Shown here piece by piece: positions 440 through 57,810 of a stretch of 64,000 bases of DNA (positions are counted from its first letter, which is position 1; each line of letters starts with the position of its first letter). The stretch comes from Octopus vulgaris. Taxonomy: Eukaryota. The stretch lies in assembly GCA_951406725.2 (NCBI GenBank), contig OX597816.1:142600001-142664000 (forward strand), in the 5' to 3' direction. The position numbers and the translations under genes were made by a program. The notes under the pieces are model-generated. The model had not been told where the DNA came from and searched no databases. It saw nothing but the letters and a program-made list of their open reading frames with translations.

Positions 440-1084
440 ATAAATAATATATAAATATACACATATATACATATATGTGCATACCTACATATATATGTAT
501 ATATACATGCATATATGGGTACAGGACATCAAAAAACGTGGACAAAATGAGAAATGAGAACATAAAAAACAAAAATATAGAAAACAAACTTTTTTCGAAC
601 AATGAAAAAAAACCCCATAGAAATGAGATGTGCAACATAAAGAACATTCCCTTCATCAGTTGTCCCGTTTTATCTACTCCACGTTTCGAAGGTAAAGACA
701 AGACGTGTCTTCATTAAAACAGTCTTTCCCGCAAAACAAATTAAATAAAATTTGAGATTTTTTGCAGAGGGTGAAAGTGATAACAAAAACAGGACAGTGA
801 GAACAAAACAGTAAAACAAACGGTGAGGGTTATTAAGCCAAGACGATGTGAAGTGGTGAACACTGGAAAAACAAGCTTTGAGAAGAGACAGATAAAAGCA
901 CGTCTTGCCTTTATGAAGGAAGTGGAAGAAAGAAAGATGTATAGCCGTTAGTCACGTGAGAGCGAGAGAGTCAAGGAGGAAGAGTGAGAGAGAGAGGGAA
1001 CGGTGAAGGGGAGAGGATAAGAATAGGGAAAGGATGTGAGAGAAAAACAGAAATGAAGAAGAACAAGAGAGGGAGATAGATAGA
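440..1084 (-). mobile_element. Non-coding (TA)n-associated repeat, copy 1 (left arm of a head-to-head pair); probable non-autonomous Penelope-like element or pLTR
   Basis: Shares GGGTACAGGACATC, a hammerhead-core block and a CCGCAAA..AATTAAATAAAATT..TTTGCAG hairpin with copies at 1096-1730, 33317-34170 and 35290-35940; ends in a TA/TACA-rich tract. Boundaries approximate. Confidence 0.7.
649..707 (-). ncRNA. Hammerhead ribozyme-like RNA with non-circularly permuted strand order (copy 1)
   Basis: Minus strand: CACGU-C-UUGUC uuua CCUUC-GAA-ACGUG gaguagauaaaacgg GACAA-CUGAUGA-AGG. Stem III CACGU/ACGUG, GUC site, stem I UUGUC/GACAA, intact CUGAUGA and GAAA. Confidence 0.7.
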
Positions 1085-1095
1085 CAGAAAAGAGA

Positions 1096-1730
1096 TCTAT
1101 CTATCTCCCTCTCTTATTCTTCTTCATTTCTTCATTTCTCTCCCATCCTTTTTCTATTCTTCTCCTCTCCCCTTCACTGTTCCCTCTCTCTCGCTCACTC
1201 TTCTTCCTTGACTCTATCACTCACACGTGACTAACGGCCATCCATTTTTCTTTCTTCCACTTCCTTCCTAAAGATAAGATGTGTTTTTATCTGTCTCTTC
1301 TCAAAGCTTGTTTTTCCAGTGTTCACCACTTCACATCGTCTTGACTTAACAGCCCTCACCATTTGTTTTTACTGTTTTGTTCTCACTGTCCTCTTTTTGT
1401 TACCACTTTCACCTTCCGCAAAAAAGCCAAAATTTTATTTAATTTGCTTTGCGGGAAGGACTGTTTTAATGAAGATGCGTCTTGTCCTTCAAAACACGGA
1501 GTAGATAAAACAGGGAACAACTGATGAAGAGAATGTTCTTTATGTTGCATGTCTCATTTCTGTGATATTTCGTTGTTCAAAAAAAATTCGTTTTCAATGT
1601 TTTTGCTTTTTATGTTCTTGTTTCTCATTTTGTCCACATTTTTTGATGTTCTGTACCCATATATGCATGTATATATACATAGATATGTAGGTATGTACAT
1701 ATATGTATGTATATATGCGTACATTTATAT
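1096..1730 (+). mobile_element. Same non-coding repeat family, copy 2 (right arm of the head-to-head pair)
   Basis: Imperfect reverse complement of ~440-1084; 11-nt spacer at 1085-1095 between the arms. Confidence 0.7.
1476..1531 (+). ncRNA. Decayed permuted hammerhead-like motif (copy 2)
   Basis: TGCGT-C-TTGTC-CTTC-AAA-ACACG...GAACAA-CTGATGA-AG; G12 lost and stem III mismatches consistent with CpG decay. Confidence 0.5.
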
Positions 1731-29761: not shown

Positions 29762-29796
<35 letters not shown>

Positions 29797-29818
29797 ATGT
29801 TACATTACTCGGTAGTCA

Positions 29819-29881
29819 AGATAAAACTCTGAGTTTCAGATGCCGAAGTGGAAATCCACAACACCATCTCTTCGGTTATCT
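29819..29881 (-). ncRNA. Variant type I hammerhead-like fold in the Penelope 3' UTR (left arm)
   Basis: Mirror copy of 33145-33207. Confidence 0.6.
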
Positions 29882-30075
29882 GGCTATTTGAAAACGTTAT
29901 GAAAAAATACCGTTAAAAATGAAGGGAAATTACTCTGTTATAACTCTGCTTTGCCTGCGTACTTATACATCGCTCGCATTTTTCGTCATAAAAATTATAT
30001 AAAAATACATAAAAATATATAAAAATATATAAAAATATATAAAATCTTCTTGGGACATAACACAGAAAGCATGTT

Positions 30076-31809
30076 CTATCCGTTTTCTTTAGGGGACCAA
30101 AAACGTAACAGAAATTTAGTTACATGTGGGCATGATCCGAAAAGCTCTGTCCTTGTATTTAGACATGTGGTAGGGTCTAAGCTGCTTTTCCAGATAAGCC
30201 ATCTCTCCATGTCGCATAAACCGCACCTTCCGCTGCCGTTAGTATAGGGCTTACATCTGGCCAAAATCTTCCATTGTATGTTATAATCGACACCTTTATC
30301 TCTTAAAGACCAAATATGATTGGATAATTGTGTCGCTTTTCTTTTGTTCCAGTGCCTAAAGCTCAAAGTGTGGTTATTGAACCTGGCCTTGAAATTACCC
30401 TCTGTCAGGCCCACGTATTTCTTCGTCGAAACGGTGTCTTTAGTGGTTATAGAGTTTACGGTAGCTTCATATATGATGGTCTTGGACATGCAAGCTCCAT
30501 TTAGCGGGCACAATTCTTTATTCCTGCATGAACAGCTGTTTTCTTCTTGTGTTTTTTGTATGTTATGATTGATTATGTTTTTAAAATTGGTAGTTGAACT
30601 AAAACTAATTTTTAAATTGTGTCTATTGAAGAGTTTCCTATAAGCATGGTTAACTGGAAAATGTCTATCTATCAGTGCTAGGAAATATTTACCTATATTG
30701 AAGGCCACCTCGGGTGAGTAAGGGGGCGTAAACCAGATGACCTTCCTATTTCTATTATTCCTTTTCCTTATTGTTGGGCTGGTGATAGGTGTATATTTTA
30801 TTTTTTCGCTAAAACCACTATCTTTTAAAGCTTTATTATAAACTGGGGCAACGCTATTGAAGATGTCCTCATTAGATGAGAGGCTAGAAATCCTCTTACT
30901 AATATTTTTAACTAAATTTTTGAATACTATAGGGGGATGGCATGAACCTACATTAATATAACTTAGTCTATCATTGGGCTTCCTATAAGGCTTATAAATA
31001 TTATTATTAAGATCTAAGGAAACGTCTAAGAAATTGACAACCGTCAGGTTAGTGTCTATAGTTATACTAAGTCCGAAGTGTTTCATTAACTGGATAATAT
31101 CCTTCCTAAAACGATCTTGTGCTGGTCCATTTGTATTAGCTGTTAAGGCGAGGGCATCATCTTTGTAGATGGCGAAATGTACGTTAGGGAATGTCTTACT
31201 GAAGGTATCTAGGAGAAAGAGTCCAATTAGATCACAGATGCCTGCCCCATCATATGAACCCATGCTCACATCGAAAGCGCCCTCCGTGTCGGTGTTTTTT
31301 ACCCACTTTGCATTCTCACTGAAAAGTAATGTCTTTCTAGCATGGAAGATTATATCCTTATCATTGGTACTAATTTCTATGAAGTCACTAGCGAAGATTA
31401 GGGCTTTATCTAGCAGTTCTTTAGAGATAGAGGCATAAAAATCAACAATATCGAATTGTGTAAACCTCGCTTTTTTCTTATTCTTAATAGCTTTAAACCA
31501 GTCTACGACTTCTATACTATTGGACCATTGCACTAGCCTAGTATCGGTCTTAATTTTCGTATTTATTTTATCTAAAATTTCTTTGCTAATAATCCCTAGT
31601 TCTGACTTGGCTGGGTTGATAAGCCTACATTTAGGATTGGAAAGGAAGTTTTCTTTGTGGTCTTTAATAGTAATAAAGGCCTCTTTTTGGGGGAGGGTTT
31701 CTATTTTTTTATCTAATTTAAGTTTAGCGGCGATGACGCTAGCTTCTTTATTAATTTCGTTATATGTCTGTGCCCTAGCCTTAGTATAATTATTAATGAT
31801 GCTGTTGTA
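30076..31809 (-). CDS. Penelope-like RT + GIY-YIG endonuclease, 5'-truncated, uninterrupted frame
   Basis: RT motifs ITIKDHK..CRLINP, FDIVDFYASI, MGSYDGAGICDLIG, YKDD, VNFLDV; linker CSCRNKELCPLNGAC; endonuclease IIY..YVGLT..RFNNH..HIW..CGLC..E..LN. The first ~16 aa of the listed 593-aa ORF are antisense read-in from the other arm. Confidence 0.93.
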   Translation of the reverse strand, partial: YNSIINNYTKARAQTYNEINKEASVIAAKLKLDKKIETLPQKEAFITIKDHKENFLSNPKCRLINPAKSELGIISKEILDKINTKIKTDTRLVQWSNSIEVVDWFKAIKNKKKARFTQFDIVDFYASISKELLDKALIFASDFIEISTNDKDIIFHARKTLLFSENAKWVKNTDTEGAFDVSMGSYDGAGICDLIGLFLLDTFSKTFPNVHFAIYKDDALALTANTNGPAQDRFRKDIIQLMKHFGLSITIDTNLTVVNFLDVSLDLNNNIYKPYRKPNDRLSYINVGSCHPPIVFKNLVKNISKRISSLSSNEDIFNSVAPVYNKALKDSGFSEKIKYTPITSPTIRKRNNRNRKVIWFTPPYSPEVAFNIGKYFLALIDRHFPVNHAYRKLFNRHNLKISFSSTTNFKNIINHNIQKTQEENSCSCRNKELCPLNGACMSKTIIYEATVNSITTKDTVSTKKYVGLTEGNFKARFNNHTLSFRHWNKRKATQLSNHIWSLRDKGVDYNIQWKILARCKPYTNGSGRCGLCDMERWLIWKSSLDPTTCLNTRTELFGSCPHVTKFLLRFWSPKENG

Positions 31810-32950
31810 TCTCCTAGATACCTTCAGTAAGACATTCCCTAACGTACATTTCGCCATCTACAAAGATGATGCCCTCGCCTTAACAGCTAATACAAATGGA
31901 CCAGCACAAGATCGTTTTAGGAAGGATATTATCCAGTTAATGAAACACTTCGGACTTAGTATAACTATAGACACTAACCTGACGGTTGTCAATTTCTTAG
32001 ACGTTTCCTTAGATCTTAATAATAATATTTATAAGCCTTATAGGAAGCCCAATGATAGACTAGGTTATATTAATGTAGGTTCATGCCATCCCCCTATAGT
32101 ATTCAAAAATTTAGTTAAAAATATTAGTAAGAGGATTTCTAGCCTCTCATCTAATGAGGACATCTTCAATAGCGTTGCCCCAGTTTATAATAAAGCTTTA
32201 AAAGATAGTGGTTTTAGCGAAAAAATAAAATATACACCTATCACCAGCCCAACAATAAGGAAAAGGAATAATAGAAATAGGAAGGTCATCTGGTTTACGC
32301 CCCCTTACTCACCCGAGGTGGCCTTTAATATAGGTAAATATTTCCTAGCACTGATAGATAGACATTTTCCAGTTAACCATGCTTATAGGAAACTTTTCAA
32401 TAGACACAATTTAAAAATTAGTTTTAGTTCAACTACCAATTTTAAAAACATAATCAATCATAACATACAAAAAACACAAGAAGAAAACAGCTGTTCATGC
32501 AGGAATAAAGAATTGTGCCCGCTAAATGGAGCTTGCATGTCCAAGACCATCATATATGAAGCTACCGTAAACTCTATAACCACTAAAGACACCGTTTCGA
32601 CGAAGAAATACGTGGGCCTGACAGAGGGTAATTTCAAGGCCAGGTTCAATAACCACACTTTGAGCTTTAGGCACTGGAACAAAAGAAAAGCGACACAATT
32701 ATCCAATCATATTTGGTCTTTAAGAGATAAAGGTGTCGATTATAACATACAATGGAAGATTTTGGCCAGATGTAAGCCCTATACTAACGGCAGCGGAAGG
32801 TGCGGTTTATGCGACATGGAGAGATGGCTTATCTGGAAAAGCAGCTTAGACCCTACCACATGTCTAAATACAAGGACAGAGCTTTTCGGATCATGCCCAC
32901 ATGTAACTAAATTTCTGTTACGTTTTTGGTCCCCTAAAGAAAACGGATAG
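31810..32950 (+). CDS. Second, more truncated copy of the Penelope-like ORF (from just before YKDD through GIY-YIG)
   Basis: Protein identical to the C-terminal part of the minus-strand ORF except S/G in DRLSY/DRLGY; the listed start at 31796 comes from junction sequence. Confidence 0.9.
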
Positions 32951-33144
32951 AACATGCTTTCTGTGTTATGTCCCAAGAAGATTTTATATATTTTTATATA
33001 TTTTTATATATTTTTATGTATTTTTATATAATTTTTATGACGAAAAATGCGAGCGATGTATAAGTACGCAGGCAAAGCAGAGTTATAACAGAGTAATTTC
33101 CCTTCATTTTTAACGGTATTTTTTCATAACGTTTTCAAATAGCC

Positions 33145-33207
33145 AGATAACCGAAGAGATGGTGTTGTGGATTTCCACTTCGGCATCTGAAACTCAGAGT
33201 TTTATCT
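33145..33207 (+). ncRNA. Variant type I hammerhead-like fold in the Penelope 3' UTR (right arm)
   Basis: AGAUAA-CCGAAGA-[GAUG..GUGG auuu CCAC..CAUC]-U-GAA-ACUC a GAGU-U-UUAUCU: stem I AGAUAA/UUAUCU, long stem II, near-palindromic stem III. Confidence 0.6.
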
Positions 33208-33316
33208 TGACTACCGAGTAATGTAACATATTGTATAGATAAATTTCCTCTATTTACATAATATTGAGGTCTCTTTCTTTCTTTTGTTATCTTACCGTTT
33301 TATCAATATATATATA

Positions 33317-34170
33317 GTGTAATAAATAAAATATATGCATACATACAAACATATATGTACGTACCTACATCTACATGTATATATACATGCATATATAAAT
33401 ATATATATACGTGAGTACAGGACATCAAAACTAGACGTAGAACTCAACGAGAAACGAAAACGGAAAAAACATTTTTTTACAACAGAAAAACAGAGATGTA
33501 GAACTCAACGAGAAACGAAAACGGAAAAAAACATTTTTTTACAACAGAAAAACAGAGTACAGGACATACTACACAAGGAAAAATCCCCTTCATCAGCTGT
33601 CACTAGTTCGACTCTAGCGTGTTTCGAAGGCAAGACAGAACACGACTCGCCAAACTAATCCTTCCTGCGAGAGAATTAAAATAAAATTACCTCGCAGAGG
33701 GGTAAAACCAAACAAGAAAAAAATGTAACACAAATAGGACGTAAAAACGATACAAATAAAACTACAAAATAAAATACAAGATAAAAAATACATGTACAAG
33801 AAAATACAATACGAGAAACAAAGATAAACAAACGAAAAGGCCTTTTTTCTGGCTGACGGAGGAGATGCTAGCAGCGCATGGGAACACAAATGTGTGTCTT
33901 TACAGTTTGAAGGCCGCGTGTAAAAGGAAGTAGTTTTGGCTAGCAGTGACAAAGATGAGGAGGAATGAGAGAGAGATAGAGGAAGACAAGCGGCTGAGAG
34001 AGAGAAGGGAAGGTAAAGCAAAGAGATAAAGAATTTCGCGTCATAATTATATATAAAACAGTCCTGGGAGAATAAGAACGGAACGGAACGAATCGAATCG
34101 AACCCGACGCGAGGGCGCTGTCAAACAATAGTGTAATAAATAAAATATATGCATACATACATATATGTAC
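33317..34170 (-). mobile_element. Non-coding (TA)n-associated repeat family, copy 3 (diverged subfamily), with an internal ~58-bp tandem duplication at ~33437-33557
   Basis: GAGTACAGGACATC motif, hammerhead block and CTGCGAG..AATTAAAATAAAATT..CTCGCAG hairpin in the same order as in copies 1, 2 and 4. Confidence 0.7.
33585..33644 (-). ncRNA. Hammerhead ribozyme-like RNA with non-circularly permuted strand order (copy 3)
   Basis: Minus strand: CGUGU-U-CUGUC uug CCUUC-GAA-ACACG cuagagucgaacuagu GACAG-CUGAUGA-AGG; stems III and I perfect, with different sequence from copy 1. Confidence 0.7.
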
Positions 34171-34213
<43 letters not shown>

Positions 34214-57684: not shown

Positions 57685-57810
57685 GGAATGAGAACCCAGG
57701 TTCGAAATTTCCCCAAGACACCTGATGAAGGCTGGAGGGCATATCAGCTGAAATGTTGTGTTAACAAAGATAAGGACAAATATCCGTCAAATGTAAATAA
57801 TGTAAATAAT
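57685..57810 (+). mobile_element. Short Penelope-like pLTR remnant next to (ATT)n carrying a minimal type I hammerhead (57717-57762)
   Basis: GACAC-CTGATGA-A-GGCTG..CAGCT-GAAA-TG-T-T-GTGTT: stem I GACAC/GTGTT, stem II GGCTG/CAGCT; ends in (TGTAAATAA)2. Confidence 0.65.

Follow-up and report, generated by a model that had tools for sequence, protein, structure and literature searches.

A predicted hammerhead ribozyme with a split catalytic core in a non-coding octopus repeat and in Naiad retroelements

Introduction

Does a repeat on the minus strand of the Octopus vulgaris genome encode a hammerhead ribozyme whose conserved blocks stand in an unusual order, and if so, how is such a molecule wired and does it cut? 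The question arises from a site near the middle of the 64,000-nt stretch analysed here (the window). An order in which the cleavage site is followed by GAAA and then by CUGAUGA, a non-circular permutation, has been described as type SGC (Eckert et al., 2023, PMC10085705); the available part of that paper reports none of its SGC or CSG motifs in the genomes of known organisms. Penelope-like elements (PLEs) with minimal type-I hammerheads and non-LTR retrozymes are treated in the accessible portions of PMC4209133, bioRxiv 10.64898/2026.07.22.740005 and PMC11167929, and the retrozyme survey, in its accessible portion, used type-I models only. The same partial sources describe PLE hammerheads as frequently slow or protein-assisted, and in one study no RNA ends turned up at a PLE cut site. 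Naiad PLEs, in the accessible text of Craig et al. (2021, PMC8557442), lack canonical hammerheads, with eight marked HHR_half_core, and have (TA)n targets and tandem or inverted copies.

Results

Hammerhead core letters stand in a permuted order

Read on the minus strand from 33644 to 33585, the checked letters run CGUGU-U-CUGUC-UUG-CCUUC-GAAA-CACG-linker-GACAG-CUGAUGA-AGGGG, with GAAA at 33625-33622 and ACACG at 33622-33618 (Table 1). All members of the hammerhead core set (C3-U4-G5-A6-N7-G8-A9, G12-A13-A14, A15.1-U16.1 and H17) are present. A preliminary description of this DNA had compared the site (copy 3) with a copy 1 that pairs as CACGU/ACGUG and UUGUC/GACAA and has C17 at 702. Its stems, cores and H17 proved correct letter for letter in both copies; its permuted hammerhead is indeed non-circular, with block order S-G-C versus the canonical C-G-S, and its predicted cut 3' of U33639 is upheld as a structural assignment. 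The stem II strand of copy 1 has decayed to GAAAG. A descriptor that combined both cores and UH with 5-bp stems I and III, in the present order, matched only two sites in the window, copies 1 and 3, and gave two matches on 300 Markov-1 resamples of the window, or 0.007 expected per window. An Rfam scan against the covariance models of hammerhead types I, II and III returned no match. Canonical type I, II and III folds were rejected by eye, as no GAAA follows the downstream hairpin and the internal UH has no stem I.

Table 1. Positions in the window of the predicted ribozyme, its parts, its other copies and the host repeat.
Feature	Positions	Strand	Remarks and basis
Whole predicted split-core hammerhead	33585..33702	-	Six helices (A, B, II, P, III, I), 118 nt
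Helix A 5' strand CCCCU	33698..33702	-	Partner AGGGG directly after A9; predicted to close the opened core; MFE fold
Helix B hairpin CUGCGAG/CUCGCAG	33665..33697	-	Between helix A and stem II; covariation, MFE fold
Stem II 5' strand GAAGG, source of G10.1	33660..33664	-	Five Watson-Crick pairs with CCUUC
Helix P 5' strand	33649..33659	-	Counterpart of the type SGC stem I-II 'interaction' helix; MFE fold
Stem III strand CGUGU, last base U16.1	33640..33644	-	Letters and covariation
H17 = U, predicted cut 3' of U33639	33639	-	U/C/A across 16/16 families; genomic 5' ends cluster just 3'
Stem I strand CUGUC, then 3-nt linker (33633-33631)	33634..33638	-	Pairing in alignment
Block G: CCUUC (stem II 3' strand), G12-A13-A14, ACACG (stem III)	33618..33630	-	
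Helix P 3' strand, contains 3' CUAG	33602..33612	-	Energy comparison, MFE fold
GACAG (stem I, 33601-33597), core CUGAUGA (33596-33590), AGGGG (helix A 3' strand)	33585..33601	-	
Copy 1 of ribozyme, subfamily F7	648..772	-	Core at 659, G12 at 687, H17 at 702
Copy 2, inverted partner of copy 1, decayed	1411..1532 (1521)	+	AAAA replaces GAAA; deletion before stem II
Host element, non-coding repeat	33306..34207	-	About 1.06 units of a 776-813-nt tandem unit

The motif extends upstream and its catalytic strand appears to be split

The motif had been thought to be confined to the 60 nt from 33585 to 33644. Instead, it occupies 118 nt (33702-33585), with the stem II 5' strand and three further helices at 33649-33702. 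Because the stem II 5' strand sits upstream, the catalytic chain is predicted to be open between A9 and G10.1, where two extra helices would close the gap. The upstream strand GAAGG, 39 nt before G12, pairs perfectly with CCUUC in the register G10.1-C11.1; with the sequence downstream of A9, CCUUC forms only G-C, G-U, G-U and G-C after an extra A. Helix A is paired in 88% of the cells of alignment A1 and, by eye, pairs with other letters in families H1 and H2 and in coral Naiads, and helix B spans the gap to GAAGG without any unpaired base. The two linkers pair with each other as helix P (11 bp in the window copy). The resulting order is 5'-A, B hairpin, II, P, III, cut, I, II', GAAA, III', P', I', CUGAnGA, A'-3', and helices A, B, P and III reappear when the window copy is folded without constraints (z -1.97). 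A covarying helix P fits what is expected of a hammerhead stem I-II tertiary contact, and on modelling grounds may play that role in three dimensions.

An extra CUAG/CUAG hairpin had also been assigned to the long linker. Its letters are present (33617-33614 and 33606-33603), but it is not a conserved helix: it amounts to about -1 kcal/mol versus -10.6 to -12 kcal/mol for 33612-33602 paired with the upstream 33659-33649, the minimum-energy fold of the window copy has the long-range helix P instead, and 11 of 16 subfamily linkers contain no hairpin, the remaining five reaching -0.2 to -1.6 kcal/mol. Within the window's own family, stem II and helix A are nearly invariant, and CCUUC pairs equally well (-4.6 kcal/mol) with G8-A9-A-G-G in an inactive register; this register, absent from other families, is possibly an off-state after cleavage. 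Subfamilies F7-F13 have a conserved AGUA opposite GAA, which we take to be a bulged-G (loop E) motif, in the internal loop that separates helix P from stem III (corresponding to 33648-33645/33617-33613 in the window). The window's own subfamily has other letters in this loop.

Compensatory changes preserve the helices across families

The comparison covered at least 13 subfamilies of the window repeat and three Naiad-type ones, hand-grouped by linker, several of which consist of one to three copies. Across families, N7 is U or A and H17 is U, C or A. Stem I occurs as CUGUC/GACAG, CUGCC/GGCAG, UUGUC/GACAA, UCGCC/GGCGA and UCGCU/AGCGA, and stem III as CGUGU/ACACG, CGCGU/ACGCG, UACGU/ACGUA, CAUGU/ACGUG and AUGGU/ACCAU. 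In 16 families, the cognate strands of stems I and III formed 4.81 of 5 Watson-Crick pairs, compared with 2.88 and 2.70 when strands were swapped between families; none of 100,000 strand-swap permutations equalled the cognate pairing, a count that is not a strict p-value for related families. Helix P behaved likewise in the 16 families (mean -7.7 kcal/mol for cognate and -3.8 kcal/mol for swapped strands). In a 28-copy alignment, 91.7% of cells were paired and 15 of 27 pairs had changed on both sides, while 0 of 500 shuffles were as good and slid controls reached 38-51%. Stem I was paired in 98.6% of alignment cells, with both sides changed in four of its five pairs; both sides had changed in four of the seven pairs of helix B (variants CCGC/GCGG and CUACG/CGUAG). 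The MAFFT alignment put the three Naiad-type rows and helix P out of register, and anchored scripts were used for them; since these rows were misaligned, alignment counts for stem II were left out.

The strand-swap test over 16 families thus bears out the earlier proposal that both pairings are kept by compensatory change and that the stems are under selection. The original two-copy argument, comparing copies 1 and 3, is weaker than claimed and could not by itself have shown selection, since CpG decay can produce one of its three double changes. The middle change (G-C to A-U in stem III) falls on CpG dinucleotides, and 21 copy-1-like copies, a sample biased towards copy 1, have at that pair G-C in 10 cases, A-U in 5, a half-changed pair in 4 and another in 2. 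With half-changed copies so common at a CpG site, this change is weaker evidence than the other two.

For stem II, the upstream strand formed 5-6 consecutive Watson-Crick pairs 35-40 nt before G12 in eight of nine representatives, the decayed copy 1 being the only miss. The letter sets are GAAGG/CCUUC (window), GACACC/GGUGUC, GGCCC/GGGCC, GGGGCC/GGCCCC, GGCUGG/CCAGCC and GCGCU/AGCGC. The partner was taken as the best of 45 positions, with a chance of about 0.04 per family. The rival strand downstream gave pairing runs of 0-2 in other families and 1 in the window copy. Only two upstream pairs were found in two small Naiad-type subfamilies, which are single decayed copies. DNA contigs of four organisms contain the motif and add no covariation.

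The same wiring occurs in other repeat families and in Naiads

Other families were found by means of the two cores with different flanks and of a Naiad-type word (614 matches in the window genome versus 1 in the control). Five other repeat families in this genome keep the upstream stem II pairing with different letters. In family H1 (L285, L286 and L288), the wiring lies downstream of the end of an ORF with zinc-knuckle and PD-(D/E)xK-like (restriction-like) endonuclease motifs; the endonuclease is unnamed by Pfam, and its motif is presumably that typical of R2/HERO-type elements. The wiring of family H2 (L281) lies near a C2H2-finger ORF. The hosts of H1 and H2 are not PLEs.

Naiad consensus tails were read by eye in about 44 records from the accessible part of the PMC8557442 supplement. 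Within these records, the complete split-core wiring, in different letters, is present in two octopus and three coral Naiads; for coral, stem II is GGCUCC/GGAGCC, helix A AACUGU/ACAGUU, stem I UAGGAU/AUCCUA and helix P CCUGAAAUG/CAUUUUAGG. One ctenophore and one squid record look similar. Four nematode Naiads (2_Nbra, 3_Nbra, Hcon and Hpol) fit type CSG with an intact core, and such tails would place the split-core form in one permutation series within Naiads. Among the same records, again by eye, the spider Naiad_Ptep seems to have yet another wiring, and the tail of Naiad-1_Movir ends in a twister-like sequence.

Naiads, so far as the partial source describes them, share with the host element of the window (TA)n targets, tandem or inverted copies and, in the octopus and coral tails, the split-core wiring. 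The host element differs from them in having no ORF and no detected tail similarity; the host family is therefore not established as a Naiad derivative.

The host repeat is abundant and has retrozyme-like anatomy

The host element has a fixed 3' end in (TA)n, an internal 62-bp duplication at 33433-33557 and no notable ORF. Pattern searches of the 2.8-Gb genome yielded 2118 motif matches versus 4 in the control, 3680 versus 22 with a second pattern, and 4541 and 3972 with tail patterns versus 0. Other copies are partial tandems or inverted pairs inserted in (TA)n, with a common 3' end about 270 nt after the predicted cut; genomic copies decay neutrally, and many have broken cores. A tandem non-coding unit with a ribozyme, 5' truncation, inversions and AT-rich targets make up the anatomy of non-autonomous PLE/non-LTR retrozymes, but each unit has the split-core wiring instead of a type-I hammerhead. 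No ORF-bearing copy was found in about 200 loci (tblastn and an ORF scan of 120, upstream extents at most about 800 nt), nor any ORF-bearing parent with the tail of the window family, including a walk upstream of the Naiad-type tail that reached no long ORF.

At one locus (L038:880-1660), an inverted PLE endonuclease end is joined to a truncated copy of the host element. This single junction is possibly a template switch pointing to the mobilising enzyme; the PLE fragment family involved has its own type-I motif about 700 nt downstream. In L277:1470-2320 (minus strand), L275 and L201, a unit of family H3 comes directly after a unit of the window family, at a spacing of 750 nt in L277 and much the same in L275, which suggests chains of different ribozyme-bearing units.

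Other elements lie in the window. A young Penelope-like element at 29782-33244 encodes a 593-aa RT with a C-terminal GIY-YIG, the latter called from a weak Pfam match (E 0.012) and nothing further from Pfam or PDB. It has an inverted 3' duplicate with arms 99.65% identical, and lies tail to tail with the ribozyme element, the two ends being about 60 bp apart. It also has its own minimal type-I hammerhead at about 33147-33207 (plus strand), mirrored at about 29820-29880 (minus strand), with a CCGAAGA core (C for U4; CUGAUGA in related family copies) and a palindromic stem III. Another repeat carries a minimal type-I hammerhead with an extra A after A9 at 57716-57765 (plus strand). Copies 1 and 2 form a head-to-head inverted pair at about 440-1720, and by eye a segment of each arm some 200 nt upstream of the ribozyme is complementary to the strand with the cleavage site, possibly allowing anti-ribozyme pairing.

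Genomic 5' ends cluster just after the predicted cut

Copies anchored downstream of the ribozyme were taken in genome order on contig C1, and their 5' ends were mapped relative to the predicted cut. In sample 1 (89 copies, three rearranged ones excluded), ends fell at +51 to +75 in 3/86 copies, at +26 to +50 in 6/83 and at +1 to +25 in 35/77; upstream of the cut they fell at -24 to 0 in 0/42 and at -49 to -25 in 2/42, and 40 copies read through. The difference between +1 to +25 and -24 to 0 gave a Fisher value of 7.5e-9. Sample 2 comprised 70 copies anchored near +170 and partly overlapping sample 1, and its ends fell at +76 to +168 in 13/70, at +26 to +75 in 8/57, at +1 to +25 in 18/49 (three of the 18 being one duplicated locus) and at -24 to 0 in 1/31. 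Two rows of sample 2 were re-read by eye, 0 being counted as +1 and -2 as about -14. The effect was smaller in its 20 fully independent copies (3/16 versus 0/13). A Naiad-type family had 3 of 20 copies beginning at +2 to +5.

The ends centre on +7 to +13 and not on +1, where one to three copies per sample begin, and about half of the copies read through; we guess that trimming or (TA)n microhomology accounts for this mode. A cleaved template would be expected to leave a sharp edge at the base predicted from the structure, and because many genomic copies begin just after the predicted cut, the ribozyme likely cuts in living cells, as judged from genomic DNA. Four contig sets, presumed to be RNA, cover the unit and are uninformative on ends or strand. 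Copies at L336, L369 and L320 begin at or near the helix A 5' strand (about -72 to -78) and may form a second cluster of 5' ends. A Pol III start at an A/B box was considered as a source of the pile-up and rejected, as spacing and internal T-runs would not fit.

Discussion

The best explanation is an active hammerhead with its catalytic strand open between A9 and G10.1; its predicted target is the transcript of a non-coding, Penelope-like retroelement, which it would cleave 3' of U33639. We put the probability of this reading at about 0.78. Helices A and B would stack on each other and, together with stem II and the A9-G12 pair, would make up a four-way junction that lets the core fold as usual, with stem II stacked on A9-G12 and helix P acting as the stem I-II tertiary contact. 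Cleavage, for which a monomer would be competent, would cut tandem transcripts to ~0.8-kb monomers, and a borrowed PLE-type reverse transcriptase/endonuclease might use an internal priming site about 270 nt beyond the cut. On this view, short copies that stop at the cut would derive from cleaved linear RNA, and read-through and partial-tandem copies such as that in the window from uncut or circularised RNA.

A simpler wiring would be a plain type-SGC hammerhead within 33644-33585, in which CUUC pairs with GGGG after one extra A as stem II and the upstream sequence is scaffold only. We regard this as quite improbable: only two of its stem II pairs are Watson-Crick (one in the family of copy 1), it yields -2.6 kcal/mol versus -4.6 kcal/mol for the upstream strand, AGGGG has a better partner in helix A (-7.4), and in families H1-H4 the downstream run is 0-1 whereas the upstream strand pairs over 5-6 bp. 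That the whole pattern is chance or neutral drift, namely hammerhead-like words in an abundant repeat with pairings due to common descent only, is scarcely credible. The neutral decay of genomic copies with their many broken cores and the one CpG-type double change among three would suit drift, but covariation refutes it: the descriptor found 2 sites versus 0.007 expected, the alignment, strand-swap and stem II tests all speak against it, and every helix persists, in different letters, in unrelated families and in other animals.

It is also unlikely, if less so, that the fold is selected without being a free-standing ribozyme. Cutting could depend on a protein, or the fold could be a protein-binding or stop signal, and the 5' pile-up would then reflect reverse transcriptase stalling on the pseudoknot or a transcription start. 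In favour of this reading, the mode at +7 to +13 falls on the stem II 3' strand and read-through occurs in half of the copies; in the accessible part of the literature, cleavage by the Poseidon hammerhead required protein, and the hammerhead was not needed in vitro. Binding alone, though, would not require both core motifs and UH, which are kept in all families. Stalling is a weaker fit because the stronger hairpin B stops at most 2/42 copies, and the 5' ends break off sharply at the predicted cut; T-runs within the unit would disfavour a Pol III transcript and with it a transcription start.

The split-core hammerhead would work like type SGC but lacks the uninterrupted block of that type; non-circular permutations as such are already known. 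The available text of PMC10085705 shows that HRIMA-1, a validated type SGC, shares the ring order (III', cut, I', short linker, II', GAAA, III, interaction strand, I, CUGAnGA, II, interaction strand), the 5-bp stems and a helix that links stems I and II on their distal sides. HRIMA-1 has an extra U exactly at A9/G10.1, where the window motif is opened, and a short linker before stem II'. In SGC as described there, the chain ends between the interaction helix and stem III, which an internal loop joins in the window motif; the chain of the latter ends at A9/G10.1 and is closed by helices A and B. Block C of SGC is uninterrupted, its stem II strand following 0-2 nt after A9, whereas here the partner lies upstream and downstream pairing is weak or absent. 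Type CSG, in the same partial text, is the same ring opened elsewhere, with a continuous core strand. A match to the search patterns given there called for CUGAUGAG or CUGAUGAUG, a stem II strand downstream and no more than 15 nt of linker, so that the split-core form was out of their reach; unlike the SGC and CSG motifs reported there, the window motif occurs in animal genomic retroelements.

The host repeat resembles the PLEs and retrozymes of the partly available sources: its ribozyme lies near the 3' end, its insertions at AT-rich sites are partial-tandem or inverted and 5'-truncated, its tandem units are non-coding and up to about 1 kb long, and priming is presumably internal, downstream of the cut. 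Those hammerheads are type I with a weak stem III and are active as dimers, whereas the window motif has a full stem III and should therefore, on this model, fold as a monomer. Within the accessible literature, our search found no description of a core opened in this way or of non-circular permutations in animal retroelements, nor a hammerhead, solved or tested, in which helices are inserted at A9/G10.1.

It is probable that the motif is a new natural hammerhead topology, an SGC/CSG ring opened in the catalytic strand and rejoined by a four-way junction, germ-line active and present in Naiad PLEs, an RLE-type non-LTR element and non-coding retrozyme-like repeats; that it is the ribozyme supposedly missing from Naiads; and that its cut site is recorded in the 5' ends of thousands of insertions. 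If true, it would be a seventh wiring beside the six-permutation hammerhead scheme, and a core splittable at A9/G10.1 would offer a new place for aptamer insertion or chain opening. Non-circular permutations would move from metatranscriptomic RNAs to animal genomes, in thousands of copies, and the reported hammerhead gap in Naiad elements would be filled. The pile-up of insertion ends at the cut would be rare in vivo evidence on the role of PLE hammerheads, and would render the linear-monomer and circle models directly testable.
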